A stretch of 61,934 bases of DNA, counting the filler, from a bacterium (lineage in GTDB: Bacteria; JAJRZV01): the NCBI GenBank assembly GCA_024275095.1. It is 4 parts of 4 records of this genome, joined end to end, with 100 filler letters (N's around TTAATTAATTAA, not from the genome) between each part and the next. Parts side by side here need not be neighbours in the genome. Positions count along the whole stretch, not along the records: positions 40,960 to 57,253 come from JAJRZV010000018.1; 3 more parts are not named here. One strand, 5' to 3'. The notes beneath the pieces are model-generated. The model searched no databases, was not told the DNA's origin, and worked only from the letters and a program-made list of their open reading frames with translations. Made by a program: the position numbers and the translations under genes. This document shows, piece after piece, positions 16,791-57,353 of the stretch. How positions within the stretch are numbered: position 1 is the first letter of the stretch; every line of letters starts with the position of its first letter.

Positions 16791-16890
16791 NNNNNNNNNN
16801 NNNNNNNNNNNNNNNNNNNNNNNNNNNNNNNNNNTTAATTAATTAANNNNNNNNNNNNNNNNNNNNNNNNNNNNNNNNNNNNNNNNNNNN
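16791..16890. other. Artificial contig spacer
   Basis: 44 N + TTAATTAATTAA (stops in all six frames) + 44 N. Confidence 0.98.
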
Positions 16891-40859: not shown

Positions 40860-40959
40860 NNNNNNNNNNNNNNNNNNNNNNNNNNNNNNNNNNNNNNNNN
40901 NNNTTAATTAATTAANNNNNNNNNNNNNNNNNNNNNNNNNNNNNNNNNNNNNNNNNNNN
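40860..40959. other. Artificial contig spacer
   Basis: 44 N + TTAATTAATTAA + 44 N. Confidence 0.98.
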
Positions 40960-41189
40960 CTCAAATAAAGCAATAACAACGATTTGTTTTAGAACGATAT
41001 TTTTTCAAATTGGGATATTGAGACAACATGCAGGCCAACAATTCGTCATATATTACACCAGGTTAGACCTCTACAACATGAGCGTCGCCATATTGATTCT
41101 GTAGCCGATGTTGCTTTGGAATAATTTTAGAAATATAACTGTTTTTTCAAACCAATACGGACACACAAAAAATTTTCAAACTGGCTCGT

Positions 41190-41780
41190 TCAGCGCGTAT
41201 TCGAACCATTGGTCTCAAGGGTTGCAGATACCCTGCTGAAAAGTTCTCTCAAAAAAGCGCGGATGCTTTCCCGGTCAACTTTTTTACCAGCCCGGCGAAG
41301 AGAGTGGATCTCCTCTATGAAACCCGAGATATCCTCTGTAATCACACCTTCCAGAATTCGTCGAATTTCCGCTGCTATTACGGGTGCGAGAGCTGATGTG
41401 GATATTGCCAGCAGGAGATGGCCCTTTCTCACGACAGCAGGGAAAACAAAATCGCACATGTCCGGCGCATCCACCACATTGCACAAAATTCCTCTTTCAT
41501 GACAGTCATCCCGGACCTTCCTGGCTGCATCCCCTCCACACGCAACCACGACAAACCGGAAACCCTCTTTAAGGCATGAACCTTGATAGCTTCCGTTTAT
41601 CCACTCGAGTTTTCCATCCTGTATGAGCTCCCGCATCTCATCACACACATGCGGCGAAATCACTGTCACCCTTGCACCGGCTTCCAGCAATGCCTTCACT
41701 TTTCTGAAAGCGACCTTTCCACCACCAACCACAAGCACGTGCAGATTGTCGGTTTTAAACACAAGTGGCAAGTATCCCAT
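41190..41780 (-). CDS. Precorrin-2 dehydrogenase/sirohydrochlorin ferrochelatase (CysG N-terminal/SirC-like)
   Basis: YLPL, VVGGGKVAFRK, NVVDAPDMCDFVFPA, AISTS. Confidence 0.88.
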   Translation of the reverse strand: MGYLPLVFKTDNLHVLVVGGGKVAFRKVKALLEAGARVTVISPHVCDEMRELIQDGKLEWINGSYQGSCLKEGFRFVVVACGGDAARKVRDDCHERGILCNVVDAPDMCDFVFPAVVRKGHLLLAISTSALAPVIAAEIRRILEGVITEDISGFIEEIHSLRRAGKKVDRESIRAFLRELFSRVSATLETNGSNTR

Positions 41781-41851
41781 GGCCGATATTCTACCAGAAA
41801 TCCCTGAACTTCTTTTGATGAAATCTTCACGGTCGGTTACACTTAAACACC

Positions 41852-42643
41852 ATGATAAGGCGCGTGAAAGAAAAGGTTGTATTCATTACCGGGGCATCAA
41901 GCGGTATTGGTCGGGCGACAGCTGCGCTTCTGGGGCGTAAAGGAGCACGGGTCATTCTTGTCGCACGGAGATCTGAAAAGCTGGAAGAAATCGCCAACGA
42001 AATCACGGCTTCAGGCGGCGAAGCCCTTGTGTGCCCTGCGGACGTAACCCGCACAAACGAGGTCGAGCGTGCGGTAAATGCGGCAATAAAAAAATTCGGC
42101 CATGTGGATGTACTTATCAATAACGCGGGAGCAGGACTCGCAGTCCCCGTAAAAGAACTCTCAGAGGACCAGCTCCGCAGACTGTGGGAACTCAACTTCA
42201 TGGGTATGTTTCACTGTACAAAGTTGCTTCTGCCCCACTTTCTCCAGCGGAACAGCGGTCACATCATCAATATTGCATCGGCCGCCGCACTGCGTGCACT
42301 CCCTTTATACGGTGCATATTGCGCGACGAAATCTGCAATGGCCGCGTTCTCAGACTCCCTGCGCAGTGAACTCCTGGGTACGGGTGTGAAGGTTACAGTC
42401 GTGTATCCCTTCATCACGCGCACGGAATTTTACGAGGTGGTCGAAAAAACATCCGGCGGGAGGGGCCGGGTAACAGGTCTGGCCCAGTCACCCGAGTGGG
42501 TAGCACGCGTTATCCTCTGGTGCATCAAAAGGCGCCCTTCACAGGCATTCACGATTCCTGGTATCAAAACCGCCGCTGCACTCAACCACTTTTTCCCTGG
42601 ACTCTTCGACCGGGTGGCACGACTTGTCATCGGGGACATCTGA
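41852..42643 (+). CDS. Short-chain dehydrogenase/reductase
   Basis: TGASSGIG, NNAG, YCATK (YxxxK). Confidence 0.93.
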   Translation: MIRRVKEKVVFITGASSGIGRATAALLGRKGARVILVARRSEKLEEIANEITASGGEALVCPADVTRTNEVERAVNAAIKKFGHVDVLINNAGAGLAVPVKELSEDQLRRLWELNFMGMFHCTKLLLPHFLQRNSGHIINIASAAALRALPLYGAYCATKSAMAAFSDSLRSELLGTGVKVTVVYPFITRTEFYEVVEKTSGGRGRVTGLAQSPEWVARVILWCIKRRPSQAFTIPGIKTAAALNHFFPGLFDRVARLVIGDI

Positions 42644-42822
42644 TTAATTCGTGTCTACGGACTCATCCTCTTCAAGAGGGCGAGGAAGCACATGTGGTAG
42701 CTCTTGCATCTGTAGAGTATCCTGGTTCCTCGTCTCCACCTTAAAGAGGGAAAGATATAAAGGGTGGTGGCTACAGGCATTGCAGCATCATTAATTTTGA
42801 CTCTTGAAGCTGGATCCCACCA

Positions 42823-42911
42823 GTTATTGCGAGGAGTCCTGCCACAGGCAGGACGACAAAGGAGCCCCACAAATTGCTTCGCCTTGGTATAGCAGGGCGA
42901 CCGGAGCAATC
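42823..42911. repeat. Palindromic intergenic element (REP-like, degenerate)
   Basis: Perfect hairpin GTCCTGCC-ACA-GGCAGGAC (42836-42854) and an imperfect hairpin ATTGCTTCGCC...GGCGACCGGAGCAAT; single copy in this window. Confidence 0.4.
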
Positions 42912-43020
42912 CCACCCCCCGCACTCCACCGCGCCTAAAACCTCAGCGTTGAACCCCGAATGTCCAATGTTGAGACCAGACCCCGAAATGCATGCCCAAC
43001 ATAAATCGCTTCCATCCATG

Positions 43021-43104
43021 TGCGAGGGGAGGGACTTTAACCCTCACCCCATTTCCGGGACTGGATTCTAAGTCCAGCGCGTCTACCAGTTCCGCCACCC
43101 TCGC
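43021..43104 (-). tRNA. tRNA-Leu(TAG), with atypical T-loop TTAAAGT
   Basis: GCGAGGG/CCCTCGC acceptor, CTGGA-CTTAGAA-TCCAG anticodon arm, long variable arm; CCA not encoded. Confidence 0.9.
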
Positions 43105-43206
43105 ACTATGCACAGCGGCTTTGCGTGCTTTTTACATTATATAAGTATAATTCAGGATGTACGACCGAATGTTCGAATATCTCTGAAAATCATCTATTAC
43201 TATTAC

Positions 43207-43280
43207 TGGGCCACCCAGGACTCGAACCTGGAACCAACGGATTAAGAGTCCGCTGCTCTACCATATTGAGCTAGTGGCCC
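43207..43280 (-). tRNA. tRNA-Lys(CTT)
   Basis: GGGCCAC/GTGGCCC acceptor, GCGGA-CTCTTAA-TCCGT anticodon arm, TTCGAGT T-loop; CCA not encoded. Confidence 0.95.
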
Positions 43281-43468
43281 ACGGATGCTTTCTTCTTCGC
43301 TGCTCAGTATAGGCCGCCATTCTCCTATTTTCAACACCTGTAAAACTCTTTTGAAACTTCGGGCGCTTAACAAAGCGACCCCAGGTTATATTGACCCACC
43401 AGAGTGAAACATGACTTGTGTAAGGGATGCACGAGACAGGATTAAATTTCTATTTGACCCTTAAGGAA

Positions 43469-43861
43469 TCAGGCCACTGCGATCCTATCCAGGACAAATT
43501 CTTTAACCTTTTCTGCTATCTCTATTGATTCTTTAGCTTCGCTACGACTGGGAAAGTATATTTCATCTGGATATCTTACCACTACTGAATATTTTGTAAG
43601 ATAATCTGCATTCCAGCCAGGCATTTCTTCAAATTCATTATCAACTTCTGCACACGCTTTGATCAATTCTGTAATGTCATGGTTTTTTCTTATCTCCTTG
43701 TCGTGATAAGTAAGAAAGGCCTTCAAAAACTTTTCAACACATTGCTGAGAACGGAAACAAACTGATCTGAAAACCGGGTCCTCTGAATTCATCTCATGAC
43801 GGGCAGTTTTCAAATCATCCTTTGCAAGTTGAATCCAGTTTTTCACTATCTCTTCATTCAT
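43469..43861 (-). CDS. HEPN domain protein
   Basis: WIQLAKDDL..A, CFRSQQCVEKFLKA, HDITEL, RYP pattern; ATGA overlap with the upstream MNT remnant. Confidence 0.88.
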   Translation of the reverse strand: MNEEIVKNWIQLAKDDLKTARHEMNSEDPVFRSVCFRSQQCVEKFLKAFLTYHDKEIRKNHDITELIKACAEVDNEFEEMPGWNADYLTKYSVVVRYPDEIYFPSRSEAKESIEIAEKVKEFVLDRIAVA

Positions 43862-44177
43862 ATTTCAACACCTTCTTTAAGAGCATAATACGTTATAATT
43901 CTTACATTGATCTTCTGTTTTTCAACATCCATCAGGGATTTTATAAAAATATCATTGGGAATCTTTCTTTCTGCCAATCTCCTTTTAATCTTCAGAATTA
44001 TTTCCCATTTTTTTATACGGGATTTCCCTATCTGCTACAACAAAAAAATCCCAGTCGCTTTCTTTTCTACCCATTCCCCTGACTCTGCTTCCAAAAAGAA
44101 GAATTTTGATCACTATAGCCTTCTTTTTCCACTTCTTCTTCTATTATCCGTTTAGCAGTGTGGAGAACGGATTTCAT
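43858..44177 (-). pseudogene. Minimal nucleotidyltransferase (MNT) antitoxin with two frameshifts; absent from the ORF track
   Basis: Manual translation: MKSVLHTAKRIIEEEVEKEGY / VIKILLFGSRVRGMGRKESDWDFFVV...PYKK / WEIILKIKRRL...ALKEGVEI*; shifts near 44114 and at the A7 tract 44008-44014. Confidence 0.85.
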
Positions 44178-44491
44178 AACGTGGTCTCAAAAAATATTTT
44201 GCTTTGAGTACTTATTGTACACCCATACTCACTCGAAAGAAGCAGAATAACAGCTTGCATGAAAGTTTTTAAATTACCTCCCGGCCGGCCATGTTTTCAG
44301 GGCTTTACCACATTAAGATCAAGCCACGGCAATCTTTCTGTGGCATTACGCCCTGGGACAAAGGAAATCACAATGCGTGATATCCTGCTATCACGTTCTC
44401 ACAGAATTCCTCACCTTCCGCTACTCCCCACTCAGACATATACCCTCGAATACATGAAATGTTAAGTCCCTACAACAGCAACCCACAAAAT

Positions 44492-46140
44492 CTATTCTGT
44501 ACCAATCTCCATGCCCGGCACACCGACCTGGAGCCATGCCAGCAGCTTGTTAAGCGAGTAAAGGTCTGCCGGAGCGAAACCCAGAACATCTGCTTCAGGA
44601 AGATAAGGCAACTGAGAGAGGTCAAGGAAAAGCATTCCATTAAACGTGGGGTCCTGGAATCCGATATAAAAGATGGTTTCGTCAAACACTGGTCCCATGT
44701 CAGGCCCAATACCGTCTGCGGCGATTTTTGTGGCTACAGCCTGACCCTTGAACTGCACCGCATCCGGGAAATGACTCCAGTCATAGCCGGCCACATGAGC
44801 CGAAGAGTAATAGAGGCTTTCACCTTCCACGAGAAATTCCTTTGGCGTATCAGGACTCCCGTCATCATCATACCAGATGGGCAGGTAATCCCTCAGAGGC
44901 TTTGGACCTGATGTGTACTCGGGTCCGGGGCCGAGAAAGAAAGCCGCGGGATCTATCCGTACCACGTTGGGGATTTCCGGCACATCAAACAAGGGAGAAA
45001 ATCCCTGAAGAATCTCATTTACATCAGCAGCATCAATGTACACAGGCTGACCACCGCCTTTGTCCACCATTGCAAGGCTCTGCTCCAGTTTCCAGAAAAG
45101 TGCAGAAACACTCTGGTGCACGCTGTCAAACACCTGGGCCAGATCGGCATTGAGAGTAAGAACAATTCCCTCGGGCATGGAAGGAACGGATATTACATCT
45201 CCAACCTCTGCACCTCTCACTCCAATGATGAACTTATCCCCGGGCGAGAACCTGCCCAGGGGTACGGTGTCAACAAATCCCAGAACATTGTCTGTAACGT
45301 CGGCGTCAACCTGAGCCTGCTGAAAGAGGAAGGGTATAATTCCCTCGTCATCTGAGACATCTTCTGCCACTTCACCGGAATCATTCAGTGCACGCAGAAG
45401 GTCAAGCCAGCGGTTGTCAATGTTGTCAAATCGAACCCGGTCTTCCGCATTACTGGAAAGGCCAAAAGGTCCGGATTCCAATCCATAAGGGCCCCAAGAG
45501 AGCGGATCATTTCAACCGTGTTCTCCTCGTTCAAATCCGGCATCTGAAAAACCTCTACTTCGAGAGAATGAGAATAGAGAAAATCAAACATGGAGAGGAT
45601 AAACTCTCCAACAGCATAAACAACCCGAGCCACTGTCTGATCCCACTGGTAACCCAGTGTGACGGAGAATGACATCCAGGATTCAGGGCCGGTGATGGAA
45701 AAGTTCACCCCATAAGGCGTGTAAAAAGTACAGTTGTTCTGATACGCATAAAGAGCATTGTCCCTCAATTCGGTAATCAGGTTTTCATAGGGATCGAGAT
45801 AAGTGTGCACGTAACTCATCAGGTCAACACCCAGGGTCTGAATGTCTGAAAGAGCATTTTGGGTCGCTGCTTCCGCTCCCATATTCATCAAGTTTTCAAG
45901 TGTGTCCAGAAGCTCCTGAATATTGACCAGCATGTAGAGGTAGTGTTTCTCACATTCAGTGAACTCTCCGTCCAGCTCAGGCTCCTGTTCCTTGACTGCG
46001 CTGTAATCACTGGAAGCAAGGGCCTGGTACACACTTTCCTTCACATCCGGGGCATTTTCTTTCACCCCGTCAGAACATGAACACATGAAGGCAAAAATTA
46101 ATGCCCAGATGACCCACCCTTTATTCCTCATAAAAATCAC
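44492..46140 (-). pseudogene. Large acidic lipoprotein-like protein (about 549 aa if joined) split by a frameshift near 45457-45467
   Basis: Signal peptide with FMCSC; two overlapping ORFs of similar acidic composition; one added T joins DLLAF to SSNAEDRVRFD. Confidence 0.6.
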
Positions 46141-46309
46141 CTCCTTCCCCCTCTAAGGAATGATGCCTCTATCACTTCTATCTATCATAAATAATTATAT
46201 CAAATACTTCGGCAGAGCGCTTTAAAATTTTCGAGTGCACTTTTTTGAAAAAAAATAGCAGGTGTGACGAACTTAACAGCAAATGCAAGAAAGATTCGCT
46301 ATTTTTTTA

Positions 46310-46337
46310 TTGCAAAATACACATCAAAATGTAAGAT
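46310..46337 (+). promoter_or_regulatory. Putative sigma70 promoter
   Basis: TTGCAA-N16-TAAGAT upstream of strong SD AAGGAGG and ATG 46398. Confidence 0.4.
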
Positions 46338-46397
46338 GTTTATGAAGTTTATGGAGATTATAAATTCAAACAATCAAACCCTGAAGGAGGTGGTGAT

Positions 46398-46979
46398 ATG
46401 AGAAGAATCACCAAGATTGTAACAGGTTTGTCTGTCCTCGCATTCCTCGCTGCCTGCGGAGGTGGGGTTAAGCCGCCCGAGTGGGTTACGAAAGGTTCGG
46501 GTGCGTTCCCCGGAGATCAGGGCGCTGTACTTTATGGAGTGGGTGTGGCGAGCAAATCTCCAAATATTGCTCTCCAGCGAAAAATTGCAGATAACCGTGC
46601 GCGCCAGGAACTTGCTGCTCAGATCAGCACTTATGTGGCCACTTTCATGAAGGATTTCATGGAACAGCACAAGGACTATTTCAATCCTGATGCAGCAGGA
46701 TCAGATGAACTCGTACAGTTCGTTTCCAAGTCCGTATCCGAAGCCACACTCGTAGGTTCTCAGATCGTGGACAGGTGGACCGATCCACGAGACGGCACCC
46801 TTTACAGTCTGGCCGTCCTGCGTGTAGACGACGTGCTTAATCAGATCAAGGAAAAAACCAAGCAGGCCATCCGTGCACAGCACAGGGCCGTGGTTGTGGA
46901 AAAAGCCAACGAGCTGGTAAAAGAGCTGGATAAGGCTGTAGAGCAGAAAAGGCAGTACGAGTCCGGGGTGGTCCAGTAA
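46398..46979 (+). CDS. LPP20-family lipoprotein
   Basis: LAAC lipobox; PEWV, YGVG, ADNRARQELAAQI, GTLYSL. Confidence 0.8.
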   Translation: MRRITKIVTGLSVLAFLAACGGGVKPPEWVTKGSGAFPGDQGAVLYGVGVASKSPNIALQRKIADNRARQELAAQISTYVATFMKDFMEQHKDYFNPDAAGSDELVQFVSKSVSEATLVGSQIVDRWTDPRDGTLYSLAVLRVDDVLNQIKEKTKQAIRAQHRAVVVEKANELVKELDKAVEQKRQYESGVVQ

Positions 46980-47006
46980 CCGGTTACTTTTTAAAAGTCC
47001 GAAACA

Positions 47007-47939
47007 ATGAAAAAAAAGGGAGGTTGCCGTGGAAGAAGGGTAATCTCCCTTTTTTTACTTCTTCTACTTTTTTCTCCATTTCCAGCATGTTCACCCTCAC
47101 AAACGCCTCACGTTCCATCGTGGATAAAGCGTACCCCGGCAGAACACGGTTATGTTTATGCTGTCGGTTCCTGCGGAAAAACATTCTTTCCACGAGACGC
47201 TGAAAATTGCGCGCGTCGGGACGGTGTTGTCAACCTTGCCCTCATGTTGAACGCGTCCGTCAGTGAAAAGACGGTAACGTTCACGGGCAAGCATACAGTA
47301 ACTACCGAAAGTGCTTTAGATGTATATCTCCCTGTGGACATACTCGCGAAAATCACTGAAAAAGCAGAAGTTGTTGATATATGGTACGACGAAAAAGGGT
47401 TATCAGGTCCGCCAGGCACCACGTATGCGCTGCTGAGAACACCGTTAAAAGAAATTGCTCAATTCGGAGCAGCCCGTCCACCACAAGAAGAATGGAAGGA
47501 CATAACACTTTCCGCGGTTAACCAGTGCAAGGGAAGTTTTTCCAAAGTGCTGCTTAAGTCTAAAATAGCTGCCGAAGGCATCTGCCCGCCCCGTTTTTTC
47601 AGAAAAGATGCTATGCTGTGTGCACGCAAAGAAGCATTTGCAGAACTTGCCAGAATAATAGTGGTGTCTGTAAAGGAAGTGATACTCGATTTCGTGGACA
47701 ATTCCCGTACTGGTTCTTACATAATCTCAACCATAATCACCGACGCTGTTCTCAACGGTGCAGTACTTGATAAATTTTTCTTCGACGAAAATGGTAATGC
47801 TCATGCTGTCGTATCAATCAGTGGCAAAAATCTCACCCAGAGCATCGAAAACACTGCCAAACACCTCCGGAGAAGTGGCAAAGAAGGAACAGCAAACCTA
47901 CTAACGTGCCTTTTGAAGCACATTACATTCGGGAAATGA
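47007..47939 (+). CDS. Lipoprotein with two tandem LPP20-like domains
   Basis: FPAC lipobox-like; PSWI...YAVG; internal repeat G.C...FF..DA..CAR......LA. Confidence 0.65.
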   Translation: MKKKGGCRGRRVISLFLLLLLFSPFPACSPSQTPHVPSWIKRTPAEHGYVYAVGSCGKTFFPRDAENCARRDGVVNLALMLNASVSEKTVTFTGKHTVTTESALDVYLPVDILAKITEKAEVVDIWYDEKGLSGPPGTTYALLRTPLKEIAQFGAARPPQEEWKDITLSAVNQCKGSFSKVLLKSKIAAEGICPPRFFRKDAMLCARKEAFAELARIIVVSVKEVILDFVDNSRTGSYIISTIITDAVLNGAVLDKFFFDENGNAHAVVSISGKNLTQSIENTAKHLRRSGKEGTANLLTCLLKHITFGK

Positions 47940-49507
47940 ACCCCGATGCTCAATCACTCAATGTGGCTGATGCCCTCCTTCAAATGCTACTTCAGAAAGA
48001 AATTAACACGTGTTTTCAACTGCCGGGCAGCCAGGTAATCCATTTTCTCTCCAGTAAAGTGCTAAAAAAATTCAAAGTGGTGGATATGGTCCATGAAAGT
48101 CACGGGGTGTACATGGCGGGGGGTTATGCAGCAGCCTCAGGTCGTGCGGCACTCGTACTCACCGCCGGGGGACCGGGTGTACTCAACACCGTATGTGCCC
48201 TATCTCACCTTTCAAAATACAGTTTTCCGTGCGTGATGATCTCAGGAACGGTGTCAAAAAGTGGAAGGATTTCCCATGCATTTCAGGATATTAACGTCTT
48301 TCCGGTGATACAAAAAGTCGTCAAAAGTGCTGTGCGTCTTACAGAGCCTGCAAATCTGGACAGAGTAAAAGACCTTGTTGAATTGACACTTAAAGAACCG
48401 GCGGGGCCCGTATATCTGGAGGTACCGATAGAAATACAAAAGTTGAGTCTCTCGACACCGCAGTTAAAAATCAGACATTCTTCCTGCACTCACAGGAACA
48501 TATCACTTAAACATGACCGGAAAAAAATGCTTAAATCCAGAAAGCGTGTTGTAGTCATCGCTGGCGAGAGGTTTTTAACAAATCCTGCCTTAAAGAAAAC
48601 TTTAAAAACTTATCTGCAAAAATACCCCGTAGCGGTTGTAGCACCATACGGGATAAAGGGGGTGCATCTCCATGAATTGAAGCTCGTGCCCCTTCTTCAT
48701 CCAGAAAAGATTTTCCAGCAAGATGTGCTTGTGGTTACAGCTGGTGTGGGAAAAGACTGGCGGATAAAAGCTCTGTTAAAAGGCCTTAACACGGAGGTTC
48801 TTAGAATCGAGAGCTGTGAAATTGATTCCCTCTTCAAAACAATGAACAGAAACCTTCTTGATGGAGAATGGGTACAGGCACTGGAAAAATACGAACACCA
48901 CCTCATTGAGGAATACGTCAGCACCGGGGACTCCAACCCGGCGGTACTCCTTCAAAAGGTGGCCAAAGTCCTGTGTGAACCTGTGAATCTGGTAGCAGAT
49001 GGAGGAGATGCTTCGGTACTGGCCGAATGTTTTTTCCCTTCCGGATTAACATTATCGTTTGCTGGTCCCGGACCTCTCTGGAATATTGGAGCAGGACTGC
49101 CGACAGCAATTGGAATGTGGGTGGCTTCTGGCAAAAAAACCCTTCTCATCACCGGAGACGGATCTATGGGCATGTCATTTTCAGAAATATTCACCCTTAA
49201 AAAACTCAATGCAAACGTCAAAATTCTTGTTCTTAACGATGCATCGTGGGGACTGATCAAAAAAACACACGGAAATGAAGGAAAGTCTATACAGAGGGCG
49301 ACAGAACTGGATGTTCGGCTGTACGGTGCAGCAGCAAAGGCGCTCGGCATAAGCGGCACAGATGTAGATATTCGAAAAGTTAACGAAAGGCTCCTCGCCC
49401 GTTTCTTCAGGAACAACGGACCCGCTGTTATTAATGTTTTCACTGGCAACAACAGGCCGTCGCATGCAAAACTACTGATACAAAAAGCTCTGGAGGGTTA
49501 CCTGTGA
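47936..49507 (+). CDS. Thiamine-diphosphate-dependent enzyme (acetolactate synthase-like superfamily)
   Basis: HES catalytic Glu, GPGVLN, GPVYLEVP, GDGS...LNDASWG; ATGA overlap sets start at 47936. Confidence 0.85.
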   Translation: MNPDAQSLNVADALLQMLLQKEINTCFQLPGSQVIHFLSSKVLKKFKVVDMVHESHGVYMAGGYAAASGRAALVLTAGGPGVLNTVCALSHLSKYSFPCVMISGTVSKSGRISHAFQDINVFPVIQKVVKSAVRLTEPANLDRVKDLVELTLKEPAGPVYLEVPIEIQKLSLSTPQLKIRHSSCTHRNISLKHDRKKMLKSRKRVVVIAGERFLTNPALKKTLKTYLQKYPVAVVAPYGIKGVHLHELKLVPLLHPEKIFQQDVLVVTAGVGKDWRIKALLKGLNTEVLRIESCEIDSLFKTMNRNLLDGEWVQALEKYEHHLIEEYVSTGDSNPAVLLQKVAKVLCEPVNLVADGGDASVLAECFFPSGLTLSFAGPGPLWNIGAGLPTAIGMWVASGKKTLLITGDGSMGMSFSEIFTLKKLNANVKILVLNDASWGLIKKTHGNEGKSIQRATELDVRLYGAAAKALGISGTDVDIRKVNERLLARFFRNNGPAVINVFTGNNRPSHAKLLIQKALEGYL

Positions 49508-50739
49508 AAATTGTAGAAATTGCTAACTACCACGTGCGTAAAGCAGCAAAAACACTGGGTATGTCCAAACGAATAGAGAAACTTCTCATAAATCCTCGTC
49601 GCGAGGTAAAGGTAGAACTTGTCATTGAAAAAGAAGACGGCACCCTTGGTATTTACACGGGCTATCGGGTTCAGCATTCTAACGCTCGTGGGCCGATGAA
49701 AGGAGGGCTGCGGTATCACCCCACAGTCGATGACGACGATGTAAAAGGCCTGGCATCTCTCATGACCTGGAAGACAGCGCTTGTAAATATTCCATTTGGT
49801 GGAGCAAAAGGTGGAATATCCGTCGATCCCGCGGAGCTCTCCGAAAAGGAAAAAGAGCTACTAACGCGTAAATTCGTCGAAAGTATCCACGAAATCATTG
49901 GACCAAACATCGACATTCCTGCCCCGGACGTCAACACCAACCAGCAGGTGATGGCGTGGATTATGGACGAATATGCAAAATTCCACGGATTCGAACCGGC
50001 GGTTGTCACCGGAAAACCTGTTGATCTCTTCGGCTCCCCTGGCAGAGAAGAAGCAACCGGCCGTGGAGTCTTCATCATTACAAAAACATACCTGGAGAGA
50101 ATGGGTAAACCGGCAAACGTAACCACATTTGCCGTCCAGGGATTTGGGAACGTGGGTTCTCATGCAGCGTACTTTGCATGGGAAGCAGGTGGAAAAATTG
50201 TGGCCGTGTCTGACGTAACATGCTGTATTTACAATCCAGAAGGCATACACATTCCATCAGCTATTGAACATGTAAAAGCCCACGGTGCACTCAAAGGCTT
50301 TGACGGGGGTGAGGAAAAAGAACGCGACTTTGCACTCTACTGCGAGTGCGATGTACTTGTACCGGCAGCACTGGGTGGAGTTATCTCCACAGAAAATGCA
50401 GATGAGATAAGAGCGAAGATAATCGTTGAAGGTGCCAATGCCCCGATCACACCTTCTGCTGAGGAAACTCTGGAAAAGAAGGGCGTTCAAATTATTCCTG
50501 GAATTCTTGCTAATGCAGGAGGTGTAACAGCTTCGTACTTCGAATGGGTACAGAATATTCAGCGCTTCCGCTGGTCAAGAGAACAGGTGTACCGCGAAAT
50601 GGACAAAATTATGCTCGAAGCCTACAACAAGGTGGATGAACTTGCGCGTGAGAAAAAACTGAAGTTTCGAGAAGCAGCGTATATCATTGCACTGGGCCGC
50701 GTGGCCAAATCAGTGGCGCTCAGGGGGGTAATGGGATGA
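49504..50739 (+). CDS. gdhA: Glu/Leu/Phe/Val dehydrogenase, glutamate dehydrogenase type
   Basis: KGGLRYHP, MTWK, GGAKGG, PAPDVNT, QGFGNVG, NAGGV. Confidence 0.92.
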   Translation: MKIVEIANYHVRKAAKTLGMSKRIEKLLINPRREVKVELVIEKEDGTLGIYTGYRVQHSNARGPMKGGLRYHPTVDDDDVKGLASLMTWKTALVNIPFGGAKGGISVDPAELSEKEKELLTRKFVESIHEIIGPNIDIPAPDVNTNQQVMAWIMDEYAKFHGFEPAVVTGKPVDLFGSPGREEATGRGVFIITKTYLERMGKPANVTTFAVQGFGNVGSHAAYFAWEAGGKIVAVSDVTCCIYNPEGIHIPSAIEHVKAHGALKGFDGGEEKERDFALYCECDVLVPAALGGVISTENADEIRAKIIVEGANAPITPSAEETLEKKGVQIIPGILANAGGVTASYFEWVQNIQRFRWSREQVYREMDKIMLEAYNKVDELAREKKLKFREAAYIIALGRVAKSVALRGVMG

Positions 50740-51272
50740 AATGTCGACAAAAGCTTGAAAACCAGATAAGCAAATTAAAACTCTTCAAAAACTTCCCGGC
50801 TGACCTCATCAGAGAAATCTGTGAATTCTCCACCATTGAAGAGTACAGCAAAGGGGACATCATTTTTCATCAGGGTGATAAAGGAGATGCAATGTATATC
50901 ATTCTTGAAGGCAAAGTGAAAATATGCAGGATAGAAAAAAATCAAAAAATTAAGATTGCAGAACTCTCCAAAGGCGACTTCTTCGGTGAAATGGAAATAT
51001 TTGCTCCATCGCGTTCAGGTAGAGCCGGTGAAGCTGTTGCCATGACACGCACACGACTTTTAAAAATGGGCAAAAAGGAACTTCTGAAAGCCATCTCATC
51101 GGGAGCCAAGTCGGCAACACGTTTTCTTCTTACACTCAACAAAGTACTCATACAGAGACTTCGTAAGATGGATGAAGCATATACCCGTCTATTCATTGAA
51201 TATCATGGGAAAGAAAAAGTTGATGAACTACGTACACTGAAGGAAAAAATACTGAAAGAGTGGAAAATATAA
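50736..51272 (+). CDS. Stand-alone cyclic-nucleotide-binding domain protein
   Basis: IFHQGDKGDAMYIILEGKV, GDFFGEM, R in phosphate cassette; no CRP HTH. Confidence 0.88.
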   Translation: MKCRQKLENQISKLKLFKNFPADLIREICEFSTIEEYSKGDIIFHQGDKGDAMYIILEGKVKICRIEKNQKIKIAELSKGDFFGEMEIFAPSRSGRAGEAVAMTRTRLLKMGKKELLKAISSGAKSATRFLLTLNKVLIQRLRKMDEAYTRLFIEYHGKEKVDELRTLKEKILKEWKI

Positions 51273-51281
51273 ATAGACCCC

Positions 51282-52252
51282 CTATCCACCAAGAGAAATC
51301 ATGCCTTTTGACGCAGAAATATGCGGTTTTTCTGCCGAGTCTCCCGGAGGCTTGAAAAAAGGCTGCGGCGGAGGGCAGCAGCAATCTCTGCATCTGATTT
51401 GCCTTCCCTCAGCATTTTCTTGATGTCAGGACCCAGCGGACTGTAAAGGCATAGCCGCAATTTACCACTACTTGTAAGTCTGATCCGGTTGCACTCTCCA
51501 CAAAAACCCCGTGTTCTGGCCGGGATAATTCCAAATTCCACCCCCGGACGCGAGGATGAGTATACGTTTTCAACACCTTGTGAACGCAGGTAAGCAACGT
51601 GTGTCACACATTTCAAAAATTTCAACATTTCCTTTTCGCTCATGTACCCCTTTTCGGACCAGGAACTACCTGTCTCCACCAGCTCAATAAATCTGACTCT
51701 GATACCTGTCTCGCGGGAGAAATTTAAAAAATCCAGCATTTCTTCGTGATTCTGTCCCTTTATGATCACAACGTTGAGTTTTACGACCAGTCCTTCCCGA
51801 CGGGCGGATTCTATTCCATTCAACACGGAATAGAGCTCGTCACGTCCTGTAATGCTTCTGTAAACCCGGCGGTTGAGAGAGTCAAGGCTCACATTAACAC
51901 GTGTGACCCCAGCACGGCGAAGTTCACCAGAAAAATCCGCAAGTAAAGTTCCATTGGTTGTTAGAGTCACCTCCTGTATCCCTGGCATCGAAATTATACG
52001 CTCCATGAGCCCCACCGAGCCCTTTCGCAGAAGAGGCTCACCCCCAGTAAATCGAACGCGAGAAATACCCAGAGCTGCAAAAATCTGAATTACACGGTGA
52101 ATCTCTTCAAGTGACAGCAGTTCTCCTTCGGGGGTAAAGTATTCGCACTGCGCTGCAGGAACACAGTAACGACACTTCAAATTACACCTATCAGTAAGAG
52201 ATACGCGAAGGTATGTAATTGTCCTGCCCAGCCCGTCTCGCAAGTGAAGCAC
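51282..52252 (-). CDS. moaA: GTP 3',8-cyclase MoaA with a frameshift in the T6 tract at 51355-51360
   Basis: CNLKCRYC, TGGEPLLR, FCGECNRIRL...LCL; the conserved tail FKPP...MISLGG* lies in another frame ending at TAG 51282. Confidence 0.92.
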
Positions 52253-52253
52253 C

Positions 52254-52466
52254 CTATTCTTTCTGTTCCTCGTCAGAGGCGGAACTCACCTTTTCAGAAA
52301 TGGCTTTCTTGTCCTCTCCACCACCTTCATCCACCTCTCTCACTGCTTTTCTGAATTCTCTCATGGCCTTGCCCATGCCTTTGGCAACCTCTGGCAGCTT
52401 CCTGCCTCCAAAGATAAGCAGAACAATGGCCAGAATAATGAGTAGTTCATAAAAACCCATTGTCAT
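52254..52466 (-). CDS. tatA: Twin-arginine translocase TatA/E
   Basis: ELLIILAIVLLIFGGRKLPE..KGMGKAMREFRKA. Confidence 0.93.
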   Translation of the reverse strand: MTMGFYELLIILAIVLLIFGGRKLPEVAKGMGKAMREFRKAVREVDEGGGEDKKAISEKVSSASDEEQKE

Positions 52467-52472
52467 AGGATA

Positions 52473-53168
52473 TCACCTCCCATGGCAGAATATACAGGGC
52501 CGATCGGTTTCTCTATCGAGCCCCGGATGCTTCTCGACCCATCCCGGGGGATGTGGATTGCCCCCGATACCCCCTGCACGATGACATTCAATACAATCTG
52601 TTGCAGCACCTCTTTCATGACACGAAACGCATTTGACAATATTTCGTCTGGCTTCAGTTCCGTGATTCCATGCAGATGGATGAGGATTTCGAGGAAGCGA
52701 CGAAGAACCTGGAGCGTAAGACTTGTCTACGTGACAATCGTAGCAATAACTCTGTGTATGACACCGATAGCACCGGTCTGGCTCCACCTTTGCCTCAACG
52801 AAGTGCCGTGATATCCAGTTGCCTCTGTGGGGGAAGGTGCTTTCTACATCTTCAGGATTTTTCTCCGAGGGTTTCAACGATTGTTTGAAAGAGTGACACT
52901 CTGCACAGTAAGTTCGGGAATGACATTTTTCACACTCGGCTGATCTGTTGACAGCCACTGATTTATGCACATCAACCCATACAGCGTTATGAGTAAGGAT
53001 TTCAAGTCTTACCGATGTGTCATGACATGTGCTGCACCGGGCTTCCTGTATAGTGTCTTTATGCTGAATGAACACCTGTCTCCGCGTGGCTGCCAGCACA
53101 TTTGAAACACATGTCAAAAAGAAAAGCCAGGTGATAACGGCGATTCTCTCTTTCATCTTCAAGACCAA
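52473..53168 (-). CDS. Periplasmic octaheme c-type cytochrome
   Basis: Sec-type signal; eight CxxCH motifs; nine further His; alternative start ATG 53156. Confidence 0.92.
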   Translation of the reverse strand: MVLKMKERIAVITWLFFLTCVSNVLAATRRQVFIQHKDTIQEARCSTCHDTSVRLEILTHNAVWVDVHKSVAVNRSAECEKCHSRTYCAECHSFKQSLKPSEKNPEDVESTFPHRGNWISRHFVEAKVEPDRCYRCHTQSYCYDCHVDKSYAPGSSSLPRNPHPSAWNHGTEARRNIVKCVSCHERGAATDCIECHRAGGIGGNPHPPGWVEKHPGLDRETDRPCIFCHGR

Positions 53169-53171
53169 CTC

Positions 53172-54434
53172 TCACAATTCATACGTAAGTTTTCCCATTC
53201 CCTTAATTCTCCACGTATATTCTACACCCCCGGCAATACTTACAGCTGCTGTAATTTTTACATTTTCAACCAACTCGTATTTTAACGAAATGGTAGATTC
53301 ATAACTCCAGAGCATATCCTCACGAACTTCCTCATCAAAAACATCCCACACTGTATCCACGTTCCCTTGCAAGGAAGTCAGGATAAGTGCACTGGCAGCA
53401 AAACGAAGTTCCGTATAACTGGTGTCGGAACGCAACCTCGAAGCATGAAGTAACAGCAGGTATCTCTCCCCGTCAAAATAGCGTTTCGCCTTTATATAAA
53501 TACGATGAGCTGCGGTTCGGCTGTCCGCATACATCAAAAATTCATACCCTGTGCCCACCATCACACCTGACACCTCGAACAATCCGGAAACTTTCAAATT
53601 TGCGTAATCACCTGATGCAAACACACTTAAAACAGACTGATTCCCGAGAAAACTCATTGCACTTTTCGTCCCTGCCTCTACAGCAAACAGTTTCCACATT
53701 CGTGAAGCAGGGTAATATGAAAATGTCACAGATGAATCATGCAGTCTGCTGTAAGTAATATCATAACTCAAATATCCGGTAATATTCATCGAAGGAGAAA
53801 TATGAAACCAGCCGTCAAATCCGAGCCTGTTAAAATTCACGTCTTCACGTTCTTTTTGCAAAAAATACGAAACCCCCAATTCTGCCCTGGTCCCCCACCG
53901 GTGACCTGCTCTAAATCCGGCAAGCCAGTCACCTTTGCGTGACCCATCCATATCATTGAGAGGAATGCCCGTGTAAAGATTTATCGAAGTTCCACCTTTT
54001 GTGCTGAACGATACATATCCACCATCCATCTGGAGTGTAAGAGGGGCTGCACCTGCATTAATCAGCATGCGTCCCACCTTCGTATCCAAACGGGCATCAC
54101 TGCTTCGGAAACGCACATATCCGTAAAGGAGACTACCCTTCCAGCGCTCTTCCTTCCACCAGTCCCACGTTTCCACTTTCGCCCAGCCGGAAAAGACAAC
54201 TTCGAGTCCCTTCACCCCAACATCCAGTGCTTCAATATCAGCAAACTCGTAAAGAGGAGCAAGGGTCGCTTCAACATTACCTCTGACATCCGGATAAACG
54301 GTAACGATCGTGCGTAATCTTGTGTGCAGAGAATAAGCACTGCTACTTGCAGGAACTCCGACGGATAATACTGCAAAAAAATATAAAAAGAAAAACACTC
54401 CTCTTGAGCACATAGACGTAAAGGAGCGATTCAC
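53172..54434 (-). CDS. Predicted outer-membrane beta-barrel (porin partner of the cytochrome)
   Basis: Signal peptide, alternating aromatic-rich strands throughout, C-terminal KLTYEL; SD AAGGAGG; 3 nt from the cytochrome gene. Confidence 0.72.
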   Translation of the reverse strand: MNRSFTSMCSRGVFFFLYFFAVLSVGVPASSSAYSLHTRLRTIVTVYPDVRGNVEATLAPLYEFADIEALDVGVKGLEVVFSGWAKVETWDWWKEERWKGSLLYGYVRFRSSDARLDTKVGRMLINAGAAPLTLQMDGGYVSFSTKGGTSINLYTGIPLNDMDGSRKGDWLAGFRAGHRWGTRAELGVSYFLQKEREDVNFNRLGFDGWFHISPSMNITGYLSYDITYSRLHDSSVTFSYYPASRMWKLFAVEAGTKSAMSFLGNQSVLSVFASGDYANLKVSGLFEVSGVMVGTGYEFLMYADSRTAAHRIYIKAKRYFDGERYLLLLHASRLRSDTSYTELRFAASALILTSLQGNVDTVWDVFDEEVREDMLWSYESTISLKYELVENVKITAAVSIAGGVEYTWRIKGMGKLTYEL

Positions 54435-54567
54435 CCGGATCCTCCTCCTTTAGAAATGGAAATCAAAATCTTTTCAGACTTTACTGCTGAGGCTAATAAA
54501 AATCAAGCACCCGACCCCGGATTTCTATCGCAAAAAGCAGGTCTTACAGGTATATTGAAAGTATAAA

Positions 54568-55173
54568 ATGAAAACAGGTGTGCATATCGCCGGTGTGGTC
54601 CTTGTTGGTGGCAAAGGTAAACGTATGGGATGTGACAAACTATCCCTGGTTATTCGAGGGCATCGTGTGCTGCAGTACGTGGTAAACGAGCTTGCACAGG
54701 TCTGTGAGGAAATCATATTCGCGGGACGCAGTGGAGGACCCCGGATCACCTGCCGCAAGCCCACAAACTGGATACCTGATATCATACCGGAACGCGGGCC
54801 GCTCGCTGGAGCAGTCTCGGCTATGAAACATTCAAGAGCGCTCTGGTTTTTGATAATCCCATGTGATATGCCATTTTTAAATGCAGCGGTATTTCGACGC
54901 TATCTCGCTGAAAAAGAAACAGCCTCTGTTATTGTTTCTCCGTTCCGCGGTTTTCCTGTACTGATACACCATTCAGTATTACCAGTGCTGGAGAAAGCCC
55001 TGAAAATGGAAAGTCTTTGCTTTTTTGACGTAATATTTCAGGCTTCCTCCGTACGAATGCTGTCCAGGGAGAAACTTGCAGACCTCGGGAATCTCGATGT
55101 AATCTTCTGTAATATTAACACACCTGAAGATCTTTCATTTGCAGAACAGGTGTTCACGTCCGTGTGGATGTAA
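54568..55173 (+). CDS. mobA: Molybdenum cofactor guanylyltransferase
   Basis: LVGGKGKRMG.DK, GPLAG, PCDMPF, NINTPEDL. Confidence 0.9.
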   Translation: MKTGVHIAGVVLVGGKGKRMGCDKLSLVIRGHRVLQYVVNELAQVCEEIIFAGRSGGPRITCRKPTNWIPDIIPERGPLAGAVSAMKHSRALWFLIIPCDMPFLNAAVFRRYLAEKETASVIVSPFRGFPVLIHHSVLPVLEKALKMESLCFFDVIFQASSVRMLSREKLADLGNLDVIFCNINTPEDLSFAEQVFTSVWM

Positions 55174-55179
55174 ATTCCA

Positions 55180-55422
55180 ATGAAAGTAAAAGTTAAATAT
55201 TTCGGCATATTAAAAGATATTACCGGTGTTCCAGAAGAAACCCTTGTCACGAATACAGCAACCATTGAAGAGCTGCTTCGCTCCCTTGCAGCACGTTATC
55301 CCCTGCTGGCACAACATATAGAATCAGTACGTGTTGCTCTCAATGGTCGGCTGGTGGATAAAAGCAACTCTGTTGAAAACGATGGTGAAATAGCACTGCT
55401 TCCTCCTGTAAGCGGAGGCTAA
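55180..55422 (+). CDS. moaD: Molybdopterin synthase sulfur carrier
   Basis: 80 aa, VKYFG, ends LPPVSGG. Confidence 0.92.
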   Translation: MKVKVKYFGILKDITGVPEETLVTNTATIEELLRSLAARYPLLAQHIESVRVALNGRLVDKSNSVENDGEIALLPPVSGG

Positions 55423-55424
55423 AA

Positions 55425-55856
55425 ATGGGAAAAATCACTCGCAATCCCATAAACATTCAAAAAGTTATAGAAGACGTGTCACTACCTCACTCAGGGGCGG
55501 TGGCTGTATTTACCGGGACAGTGAGAAATCACGACCGCGGTAGAAAAGTGGCTTATCTCGAATACGATTGCTATGAAACAATGGCTGATGAAGAACTGAT
55601 CAAAATTGAAAAAGAATTAAGTAAAAAATACAGACTCAATGCCTGTTGTATCATTCATCGGATTGGTCAGCTCAGGGTCGGAGAAATCAGCCTTATAGTC
55701 GCTGTATCTTCCGACCACAGGAAAGAAGCCTTTGCTGCTCTTTCCGAAGCAGTGGAGATGGTAAAAAAACGTGTACCCATATGGAAGAAAGAATATTTTA
55801 CCGATGGCACGTCTGTGTGGATTAATGGAGAAAAGCTGGAGGTCGGAAATGATTGA
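55425..55856 (+). CDS. moaE: Molybdopterin synthase catalytic subunit
   Basis: GAVAVFTGTVR, HRIG, HRKEAF, KKRVPIWKKE. Confidence 0.94.
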   Translation: MGKITRNPINIQKVIEDVSLPHSGAVAVFTGTVRNHDRGRKVAYLEYDCYETMADEELIKIEKELSKKYRLNACCIIHRIGQLRVGEISLIVAVSSDHRKEAFAALSEAVEMVKKRVPIWKKEYFTDGTSVWINGEKLEVGND

Positions 55857-56781
55857 CATCAGTAACAAATACAACACCCTTCGGTTTGCCAGAGCAAAAG
55901 CCCTCGTAGAATTATCGCTTGATACAATGGAGAAAATCCGTACCGGAAACCTTCCCAAACAGGACCCGCTTGCAGTCGCCCGTGTCGCAGCCATACAGGC
56001 AGCAAAAAAGACATGGGAAATTGTACCTTACTGTCACCCTATACCACTCGATTGGGTTAATGTAGAGTTTGACATAACCGGGAATACCATTTGCATCATC
56101 GCTGAAGTAAAAGCCGTCTACAAAACAGGAGTGGAAATGGAAGCGATGACAGCTGCCTCTGTGGCAGCTATTACACTGTACGACATGCTCAAACCTGTGG
56201 ATGCAGACATTGTTATCCGCGAGATCCGGCTGGAAGAAAAGAAAGGGGGTAAATCTGATTACACAGACACCTATGACAGATCGCTCACAGCGGCTGTTAT
56301 TGTTGTGTCAGATTCAGTTTCCGCGGGTGAAAAAGAAGATCGGGCAGGAAAAGCCGTAATAGCAGAGTTAAAAAAATACAACCTGCACATAGAAGGTTAC
56401 GATATTGTACCCGACGAAAAAGAATTAATAGAAGCCGCTATAAAAAAGTATGCAGATGAGAAAAAAGTGGATATGATTCTCACATGTGGTGGTACGGGCC
56501 TGGGCCCGAGGGATGTGACTGTTGACGTGACTGCAAAGCTTATCGAGCGGGAGGTACCCGGAATCAGCGAGACTATTAGAAAATACGGAACAGAACGCAC
56601 ACCTTACGCCATGCTTTCAAGGGCCATAGCCGGCGTGAGAGGTCGAAGTCTTATCGTAAATCTTCCCGGAAGCACCAGAGGCGCCACAGAAAGCATCCAG
56701 GCCATCATGCCGGGAGTGCTGCACATATTTCACATGATGGCAGGTCGCGGGCACAATAAAAACACAGGAGAAAAAGAATGA
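55849..56781 (+). CDS. moaCB: Bifunctional MoaC/MoaB (MogA-like) protein
   Basis: MIDIS, PYCHP, TGVEMEA (MoaC) then GGTGLGPRDVT, NLPGS (MoaB/MogA); start at ATG 55849 after GGAGG. Confidence 0.92.
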   Translation: MIDISNKYNTLRFARAKALVELSLDTMEKIRTGNLPKQDPLAVARVAAIQAAKKTWEIVPYCHPIPLDWVNVEFDITGNTICIIAEVKAVYKTGVEMEAMTAASVAAITLYDMLKPVDADIVIREIRLEEKKGGKSDYTDTYDRSLTAAVIVVSDSVSAGEKEDRAGKAVIAELKKYNLHIEGYDIVPDEKELIEAAIKKYADEKKVDMILTCGGTGLGPRDVTVDVTAKLIEREVPGISETIRKYGTERTPYAMLSRAIAGVRGRSLIVNLPGSTRGATESIQAIMPGVLHIFHMMAGRGHNKNTGEKE

Positions 56782-57248
56782 CGGATATCATTGTATCCAG
56801 GGCTGTAAAAATCTTGTTTCTCCTCAATCAAATCAATCAAAAGGGCAAGTCCTTCAAAATCACAATTCCCCCCGAGCAGGTGGAAAGGATACTGCGTACA
56901 GCTTACATGGTGTCGCTCATGCTCCTGATTTCCTGCTTTCTCATTTCCTGGTTAGTCTCATTCTCCCTGCTTCTCAAAGGTGTAAGCAGAAAGATTATGC
57001 TCCTTTTTTCCGGTCTCATGTTCGCAATAATGTGGGCTCTTTATCTTTCACTTATGGGACCCTACGGATTGAAGATAGGCACTATACCTGCATCTGTGAC
57101 CATTGTATTCGGGGGAATAACAGGCTGGGCAGTGGGCAGAAATCGAACGTCGAACATTGTGAAATTTGGAGTGGCCCCCTTTGCAGGGGGTATAATAAGC
57201 CTCACATCTTTTCTTCTATTCACCTTTGTATTTAAAAAATTGTTTTAG
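56778..57248 (+). CDS. Hypothetical membrane protein (about 4 TM)
   Basis: ATGA overlap with moaCB; hydrophobic segments. Confidence 0.6.
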   Translation: MTDIIVSRAVKILFLLNQINQKGKSFKITIPPEQVERILRTAYMVSLMLLISCFLISWLVSFSLLLKGVSRKIMLLFSGLMFAIMWALYLSLMGPYGLKIGTIPASVTIVFGGITGWAVGRNRTSNIVKFGVAPFAGGIISLTSFLLFTFVFKKLF

Positions 57249-57253
57249 AAAAC

Positions 57254-57353
57254 NNNNNNNNNNNNNNNNNNNNNNNNNNNNNNNNNNNNNNNNNNNNTTA
57301 ATTAATTAANNNNNNNNNNNNNNNNNNNNNNNNNNNNNNNNNNNNNNNNNNNN
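57254..57353. other. Artificial contig spacer
   Basis: 44 N + TTAATTAATTAA + 44 N. Confidence 0.98.

Follow-up and report, generated by a model that had tools for sequence, protein, structure and literature searches.

The window analyzed here is a stretch of 61,934 nucleotides (nt) joined from parts of a bacterial genome assembly (GCA_024275095.1; 2.45 Mb, 136 contigs, 97.02% complete). Its positions 40960 to 57253 correspond to one contig, C105 (16,294 bp), whose minus strand carries a gene for a predicted outer-membrane beta-barrel protein directly followed by a gene for an octaheme c-type cytochrome, a pair with the architecture of a porin-cytochrome conduit. The barrel gene (53172 to 54434; 420 amino acids [aa], GTG start) opens a tightly packed four-gene operon on this strand, and is followed by the cytochrome gene (52473 to 53168), a tatA/E paralogue (52254 to 52466; TIGR01411, 67.5 bits, above cut-off) and, as the operon's last gene, moaA for GTP 3',8-cyclase (51299 to 52252, GTG start; TIGR02666, 318.9 bits, above cut-off). 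As read from the sequence, barrel and cytochrome genes are separated by 3 nt or 15 nt, depending on whether a TTG or an ATG starts the cytochrome; tatA begins 6 nt past the cytochrome stop, and 1 nt lies between tatA and moaA. Upstream of the barrel gene is a divergent intergenic region of 133 bp (54435 to 54567), too small for further genes, with an AGGAGG ribosome-binding site about 9 nt before the barrel GTG. A consensus scan found no sigma-70-like site in these 133 bp, and the promoter and terminator scan gave nothing exceeding shuffled expectation.

A sequence-only reading of this DNA had described two exported proteins of 420 and 231 aa, 3 nt apart, the second with eight CxxCH motifs, nine spare His and a recurring ligand pattern. 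Both open reading frames (ORFs) are present, each with a Sec-type signal peptide, and the counts are correct; the 3-nt gap holds for the TTG start at 53168 (231 aa). The ATG at 53156 (MKERIAV...) is the likelier start, because the public gene call has 227 aa and the orthologues begin MK. The CxxCH motifs start at residues 45, 79, 88, 133, 142, 180, 192 and 225, and of the 17 His, those at 36, 60, 68, 114, 122, 163, 169, 206 and 214 are spare. Since the mature cytochrome has no Met, His/Met heme ligation is impossible. The repeat, H-x3-W-x1-3-H ... CxxCH-x4/7-CxxCH, is readable in three full copies and a fourth with a single CxxCH. The signal peptide (ending ...NVLA, before AT) has no canonical lipobox, and the mature part of 205 aa would weigh about 28 kDa including eight hemes (computed), at 25.6 aa per heme.

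The protein belongs to Pfam Cytochrome_C7 (32 bits against a cut-off of 24.8). An alignment of 34 homologues keeps all eight heme motifs throughout, and seven of the nine spare His, the distal ones, do not vary in it. Weak matches of the cytochrome family profile were to c7-type polymers, MtrC/F and MtrA (MtrA E 1.6e-7), and Foldseek with a low-confidence model of the cytochrome returned no PDB match. Across the genome, the CxxCH DNA pattern occurs 447 times, against 140 for a reversed control pattern, and only 23 ORFs of at least 70 aa hold two or more CxxCH, one of them on this contig; the motif array of the cytochrome is therefore not a product of chance. The cytochrome also aligns to the C-terminal, eight-heme part of homologues of about 350 aa with 13 hemes. 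These longer proteins mostly start with lipoprotein-type signals (e.g., L-A-A-C), which the eight-heme forms lack, and the two forms may be differently anchored.

The barrel protein has a signal peptide that reads as Sec-type (...ASSSA, before YS) and a mature part of 387 aa (43.7 kDa, computed) without Cys. Folded by AlphaFold2 with an alignment of 78 family members, it gave a barrel of 22 strands without a plug (predicted local distance difference test [pLDDT] 92.6, predicted template-modeling score [pTM] 0.82), which bears out the beta-barrel-like patterning noticed earlier. Periplasmic turns in the model have 2 to 6 residues and outer loops 2 to 19; the longest loop (residues 258 to 276, between strands 13 and 14) holds the best-conserved motif of the family, FLGNQSVLSVF (262 to 272). 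When the model was compared with about 48,000 solved chains in a VIA-align search, independent of Foldseek, 22-strand TonB-dependent transporter barrels ranked first. The matches included 5t3r_D, of TonB-dependent type (Z 20.8, root mean square deviation [rmsd] 3.7 A, 365 residues aligned), FyuA (Z 19.7, 4.4 A, 352 residues), BtuB (Z 19.5, 4.1 A, 345 residues), the ushers FimD (Z 19.4, 5.2 A, 342 residues) and PapC (Z 18.6, 5.5 A, 338 residues), and MtrB (6r2q_B; Z 16.0, 4.7 A, 342 residues). Foldseek placed general porins and ushers on top at template-modeling scores of at most 0.53 and was uninformative. Transporter barrels of 22 strands hold a plug; the barrel modeled here has neither plug nor closing loop, so something else would have to fill its pore. 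The proposal of a conduit required a barrel wide enough for a cytochrome, and the model supports it, being in the size class of 22-strand barrels, plug-less and with loops of at most 19 residues.

No Pfam or NCBIfam family matched the barrel. An exhaustive search at E<=0.001 gathered 320 cluster representatives of its family, mostly of 400 to 450 aa, and a word-index homology search with the 78-sequence profile returned nine proteins. Searched against PDB sequences, the family profile gave at most weak LptD matches (E 0.0014), and few members match the Porin_4 and OMP_b-brl models, weakly (3 of 78 each). The 20 members that were looked up are unnamed or 'hypothetical protein', and the ESM Atlas holds unnamed clusters plus one labelled 'Beta-barrel porin 2 family protein'. 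All 74 invariant columns of a seven-sequence barrel alignment that includes the window barrel are kept in the window protein.

The association of the two genes extends across the family. We searched 401 sampled genomes (this one and 400 comparison genomes, with kinship stated at the domain level) with the profile built from the 78 members; it matched 70 of them at E<=1e-5, with one match in this genome. The loci examined were the 29 best returned by this search, weaker matches lying outside the set. The strict pairing rule asked for a multiheme ORF in the same orientation, between -60 and +300 nt from the barrel end, and 24 of the 29 loci are paired by it. Three loci (L008, L010 and L029) miss the rule solely through longest-ORF start calls that overlap the barrel end, one (L023) has its cytochrome gene 336 nt downstream, and one (L022) is cut by a contig end and not assessable. 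A multiheme cytochrome gene thus lies downstream of the barrel, within 340 nt, at all 28 assessable loci of the 29 examined, and the partners bind 5 to 14 hemes. Furthermore, barrel and cytochrome similarity matrices from 15 loci correlate (Mantel r 0.89, with 0 of 5000 permutations as high), a co-variation that fits inheritance as a unit and would equally fit shared genome ancestry. On this evidence, drawn from many sampled genomes, the unnamed barrel family should be a reliable marker for porin-cytochrome conduits.

At L005 (positions 4287 to 7062, on G007:C67), a distant family member stands in a three-part layout of barrel, periplasmic pentaheme cytochrome and lipoprotein tetraheme cytochrome, followed by a Tat-signal (twin-arginine translocation) lipoprotein in which HSH motifs recur and which may bind metal at the surface. 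At L029 (569 to 3028, on G229:C74), an 819-aa ORF with 12 CxxCH overlaps the barrel ORF (1438 to 2772) on the same strand; this overlap may reflect a frameshift, a fusion of cytochrome and barrel, or a long frame that is spurious.

We predicted the complex of the two proteins with an alignment for each, with signal peptides removed and three controls. The pair scored 0.83 (0.78, 0.84 and 0.83 in separate runs) against 0.00 for the best of the controls. A score of 0.83 is reached by 116 of 157 solved complexes and by 2 of 215 mismatched pairs, a calibration that is rough here since custom alignments were used. At least 76% of contacts recur between runs, with a partner pLDDT of 61 or more. On the barrel, confident contacts involve 19 of the 22 strands, mostly at alternate residues (37/39/41/43/45, 62/64/66/68, 80/82/84/86 and so on), and they also cover the conserved loop at 259 to 275; on the cytochrome side, residues 63 to 228 take part. 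Contacts spread over 19 strands at alternating residues and over the conserved loop place the cytochrome inside the lumen in the model. The prediction favors binding and supports a cytochrome seated within the barrel. Taken together, barrel width, co-occurrence of the genes and this complex prediction support the porin-cytochrome reading that had been proposed from the sequence.

Among known systems, the pair is best filed as a Pcc-like conduit. According to the accessible portions of PMC4282303 and PMC4245776, Pcc clusters encode a porin-like protein with 18 to 22 predicted strands, an adjoining periplasmic cytochrome with 5 to 14 hemes and usually an outer lipoprotein cytochrome. The likeness to the Geobacter OmbB-OmaB-OmcB system lies in the gene order, with the barrel gene followed directly by that of the periplasmic multiheme cytochrome, in the 22 strands and eight hemes (the heme number of OmaB), both inside these ranges, and in the sizes: 43.7 and about 28 kDa here, against bands of 45 kDa for OmbB and 27 kDa for the eight-heme OmaB in the available text of PMC4282303. 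This likeness is one of architecture; the sequence criterion for membership given in the available text of the Pcc papers is a BLAST E<0.01 to OmbB/OmbC and OmaB/OmaC (PMC4282303, PMC4245776). The absence of an adjacent outer-surface cytochrome, already pointed out in the sequence-only reading, is a real difference: contig C105 has one multiheme ORF, and no OmcB-like surface lipoprotein cytochrome is encoded there. Two-gene Pcc clusters without a surface cytochrome are described for Anaeromyxobacter and Kuenenia in the accessible part of PMC4245776, with 12 to 14 hemes in contrast to the eight found here. Our searches found no solved structure of a Geobacter-type conduit.

The MtrB barrel has 26 strands in its structure. 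The pair would share with MtrAB, MtoAB and PioAB (6R2Q) the principle of a heme wire inside an outer-membrane barrel, but it differs from MtrAB in its 22 strands, in its eight hemes against 10 in MtrA, and in having no MtrB_PioB match. Membership in the Mtr family was rejected on these grounds: PF11854 (MtrB_PioB) matched neither the barrel nor anything else in the genome. By the family profile and PF11854 searches, the window barrel is the only recognizable conduit barrel in this genome.

Beyond what the sequence-only reading proposed, the pair's nearest relatives appear to be wired to an exported molybdoenzyme instead of a surface cytochrome. The close orthologues group together in one clade (barrels 38 to 46% identical, cytochromes 46 to 53% identical) that is monophyletic in FastTree and IQ-TREE trees, with the window barrel as the first branch. 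In all four other lineages of the clade with fetchable DNA (L035, L036, L037 in G081, and L061 plus L040 in G001), the pair sits in a molybdoenzyme operon. On the metagenome contigs of L035 (operon at L035:1301-11838) and L036, this operon begins with a solute-binding protein, a permease, mobA and an ABC ATPase with a TOBE domain. An 882-aa Tat-signal molybdopterin oxidoreductase (MoA), a 223-aa iron-sulfur (FeS) protein with four clusters and a 104-aa diheme lipoprotein follow, and the operon ends with a TorD-like chaperone, the barrel, the octaheme cytochrome and moaA. The enzyme, FeS protein, chaperone, barrel and cytochrome are likewise on one contig in G081 (G081:C66), where no diheme gene was identified in the 297-nt gap in which it was expected; this contig stops 210 nt past the cytochrome gene, and the position of moaA lies beyond its end. 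In G001 the operon is split over contigs C100 and C6. The moaA gene follows that of the cytochrome in L001/L040, L035 and L036.

Across the lineages MoA has 882 to 921 aa with a Tat motif, RRDFLK, and the diheme lipoprotein 102 to 104 aa. MoA scores below every NCBIfam cut-off, its nearest families being PhsA, ArrA and PsrA. It has an N-terminal CxxCxxxC...C motif, and its alignment sets a Cys-containing TTCE opposite HSSVC of ArrA and VSLC of PsrA. The Cys of TTCE is presumably the Mo ligand. No membrane anchor subunit of the NrfD/PsrC type is encoded in the relatives' operon, and it is from this gene content alone that we infer a place for the enzyme at the outer membrane or cell surface. 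MoA-like and FeS genes near two distant loci, L044 and L050, were considered as the same system and rejected, with 24% identity to the clade MoA; they adjoin other membrane-module genes, unlike the clade operon.

Right after the operon, L035:11963-19204 encodes a Rieske protein, cytochrome b, an octaheme cytochrome, a Tat-FeS protein, NrfD and a 9-heme cytochrome. The Rieske/cytochrome b module is 53 to 79% identical to genes on contig C34 of the genome studied here, and the Rieske/cytochrome b/NrfD module is a likely quinone-pool link for the conduit. Three TatA/B/E paralogues occur in this genome, at window positions 52254 to 52466 in the conduit operon, at C120:12889-13020 and at C34:15562-15714, the last adjoining the quinone module of contig C34.

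The closest described parallel to the relatives' operon is DmsEFABGH of Shewanella oneidensis, in which, according to the accessible part of PMC11302344, an outer-membrane dimethyl sulfoxide/iodate reductase with a TorD-like chaperone is fed through a barrel and a decaheme cytochrome. As far as that text extends, both operons encode together a barrel, a periplasmic multiheme cytochrome, a Tat-exported bis-molybdopterin guanine dinucleotide (bis-MGD) subunit, an FeS subunit and a TorD-like chaperone, and neither encodes an inner-membrane anchor subunit. The components themselves are unrelated, and the two operons differ in several ways: DmsE and DmsF are MtrA/MtrB homologues (decaheme, MtrB_PioB family), in contrast to a 22-strand barrel without PF11854 and eight hemes here; the relatives' enzyme is Psr/Phs/Arr-like and not DmsA-like; and their operon adds the diheme lipoprotein, mobA, moaA and the ABC transporter. 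The window, moreover, lacks the enzyme half, with bis-MGD, FeS and TorD-like genes found neither in it nor in the genome. In the Pcc-type cluster ExtHIJKL of Geobacter, the exposed partner is a rhodanese-like lipoprotein and not a cytochrome, and searches were advised to expect conduit partners other than cytochromes, for instance FeS proteins (Jimenez Otero et al. 2018, PMC6148476, available portions). That cluster differs from the relatives' operon in having this rhodanese-like partner where they have a molybdoenzyme, in its pentaheme cytochrome and, within those portions, in that no cofactor-biosynthesis genes are described.

The operon link to a molybdoenzyme also separates the pair's nearest relatives from published Pcc clusters, the string 'molybd' occurring 0 times in the text of PMC4245776. 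Full-text searches of the open literature turned up no report that ties a Pcc-type conduit to a molybdoenzyme, a coverage that excludes supplements and subscription journals, and term searches within PMC4245776, PMC13186404 and 10.1101/2020.04.01.018762 yielded no such link. The relatives' conduit-molybdoenzyme operon is apparently undescribed in print. The locus in the window would itself be new as a two-gene form with only eight hemes, in a clade otherwise wired to a molybdoenzyme.

The surroundings of the pair in the window preserve part of this setting. Across the 133-bp region, mobA (54568 to 55173, plus strand) diverges from the barrel gene and is followed on the same strand by a moaD-like gene (55180 to 55422), moaE (55425 to 55856) and a moaC-MoCF fusion (55771 to 56781), all assigned by domain and family matches. 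The window mobA and its counterpart in the relatives' molybdoenzyme operon share 46% identity. Runs of N at window positions 16791 to 16890, 40860 to 40959 and 57254 to 57353 split the contigs, so that genes on either side of a run are not genomic neighbors.

The barrel, cytochrome, tatA, moaA and mobA are thus kept in this genome, and the enzyme genes do not occupy the place at the locus that they have in the relatives. Searches of the 2.45-Mb genome gave no match to PF00384 or PF01568, no tblastn match to the relatives' MoA and no TorD-like chaperone even at E<=0.1. For the diheme lipoprotein there were two weak matches in the genome (E 0.006 and 0.015), both to multiheme genes on other contigs. 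A relaxed tblastn for relics of the enzyme, chaperone and diheme genes (E<=10 on the contig, 0.1 genome-wide) returned noise only. Another contig holds an AOR-family match (PF01314, E 2.8e-107; G000:C88:19319-20491, L056) with one in-frame TAG inside it, which could be a frameshift, two genes or recoding. This AOR-family enzyme can explain the retention of the pterin pathway.

The genome scan that the sequence-only reading had called for turned up, besides the 23 multiheme ORFs, three CcsA-type cytochrome maturation genes (PF01578). About 22 of these ORFs lie outside the locus, on contigs C108 (about 14 to 41 kb), C34, C58 and C31; the proteins include ones of 1429 aa (13 hemes), 687 aa (16 hemes) and 357 aa (12 hemes), and a hexaheme with a lipoprotein signal is on contig C96. 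The other multiheme cytochromes of the genome are candidate partners of the conduit.

Considering all of the above, we regard as probable an account in which the pair is a Geobacter-type, Pcc-like two-part conduit with the cytochrome in the barrel lumen, belonging to a clade with an ancestral link to a molybdoenzyme that is absent here. The barrel would form an outer-membrane pore of 22 strands that its short loops leave open. Its partner, the octaheme cytochrome of 205 residues, exported by Sec and probably matured by a CcsA-type system, would sit in the lumen, and its chain of eight hemes would move electrons across the outer membrane. Because the other clade members are found in an operon with a Tat-exported molybdoenzyme that has no anchor, the conduit most likely served ancestrally to connect periplasmic electron carriers with a molybdoenzyme at the outer membrane or cell surface. 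In this genome the conduit would stand alone, the enzyme having been lost or separated, flanked by cofactor and Tat genes that may have been left behind; it probably has other partners now, a role that the many multiheme cytochromes of the genome could fill.

Several observations weigh against this account. Complex formation and electron transport are predictions, and the solved MtrAB structure (6R2Q) may have taught the predictor this architecture and inflated the score. Folded alone and without hemes, the cytochrome gave a weak model (pLDDT 70.3, pTM 0.35). With no partner outside, eight hemes may fall short of the cell surface; published two-gene clusters have 12 to 14. Related genomes among those that display the pairing do not constitute independent samples. 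The mobA gene, which serves only that enzyme class, is still intact, and the enzyme could lie in DNA missing from a 136-contig assembly that is 97% complete. Finally, the window pair is the earliest branch of the clade, and the link to the enzyme could postdate the split; the shared mobA and moaA flanks argue against so late an origin.

These reservations lead to alternative explanations, which we weighed against the same data. That the conduit still serves its molybdoenzyme, with the enzyme, FeS, diheme and chaperone genes in unassembled DNA, seems unlikely but is to be taken seriously. The incomplete, fragmented assembly allows it, the same operon is split over two contigs in G001, and mobA, moaA, moaD, moaE, moaC-MoCF and the operon-linked tatA are intact around the pair. 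Nevertheless, the 133 bp between barrel and mobA exclude the enzyme genes at least from their ancestral position, the failure to find PF00384, PF01568, MoA, a TorD-like gene or relics extends over 2.45 Mb, and the AOR-family enzyme can account for the pterin pathway. The opposite outcome, a functionless remnant left after deletion of the enzyme genes, would agree with the absence of the enzyme, chaperone and diheme lipoprotein genes of four other lineages; we judge it very improbable, since both ORFs are intact and have kept the eight heme motifs, the seven invariant distal His and the 74 invariant barrel columns, together with a strong ribosome-binding site and tight coupling to tatA and moaA.

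Heme wires are reversible in principle, and the pair might instead work inward, like MtoAB/PioAB, delivering to periplasmic carriers the electrons of an external donor such as Fe(II), a mineral or a partner cell. Its form as a two-gene module without a surface cytochrome is that of Fe(II)-oxidizing Mtr-type clusters, as described in the accessible part of PMC4245776. Two things make this direction of flow improbable: the relatives couple the pair to an enzyme nearest to the reductases PhsA, ArrA and PsrA, and no member of the MtrB_PioB family occurs in the genome. The notion that an ordinary diffusion porin lies by chance beside an unrelated periplasmic cytochrome could appeal to the general porins and ushers at the top of the Foldseek list and to the few weak Porin_4 and OMP_b-brl matches (3 of 78 members each). 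It is scarcely credible given a pairing kept at 28 of 28 assessable loci, two proteins that co-vary and a complex score of 0.83 against 0.00 for the best control; a plug-less 22-strand barrel without a long loop would, besides, be an open hole if empty. We therefore return to the account of a Pcc-like conduit in a clade once linked to a molybdoenzyme as the one that these data favor.

Porin-cytochrome conduits mediate the electron exchange of bacteria with minerals, electrodes and partner cells, and the organism studied here may likewise carry out extracellular electron transfer. A wider role of the barrel pair in electron traffic across the outer membrane is plausible from the gene content. 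No database model covers the barrel family, so its annotation reads 'hypothetical'; the locus provides a compact example, in which a confidently modeled barrel of 22 strands and a wire of eight hemes are predicted to meet at an interface to which a conserved loop contributes. The link seen in the relatives suggests more than one origin for the wiring of molybdoenzymes at the outer membrane, so far known from Shewanella DmsEFAB, and points to a testable respiration route for insoluble sulfur or metalloid compounds in uncultured anaerobes. More tentatively, and with the balance somewhat against it, the clade may represent a second, independently evolved conduit-fed outer-membrane molybdoenzyme, in which a Pcc-type barrel, an octaheme wire and a diheme lipoprotein feed a surface Psr/Phs/Arr-like enzyme. 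If this is true, these bacteria could respire an insoluble or impermeant sulfur, arsenic or selenium substrate, and the window would show a conduit outliving its lost enzyme, direct evidence that conduits are reusable parts.

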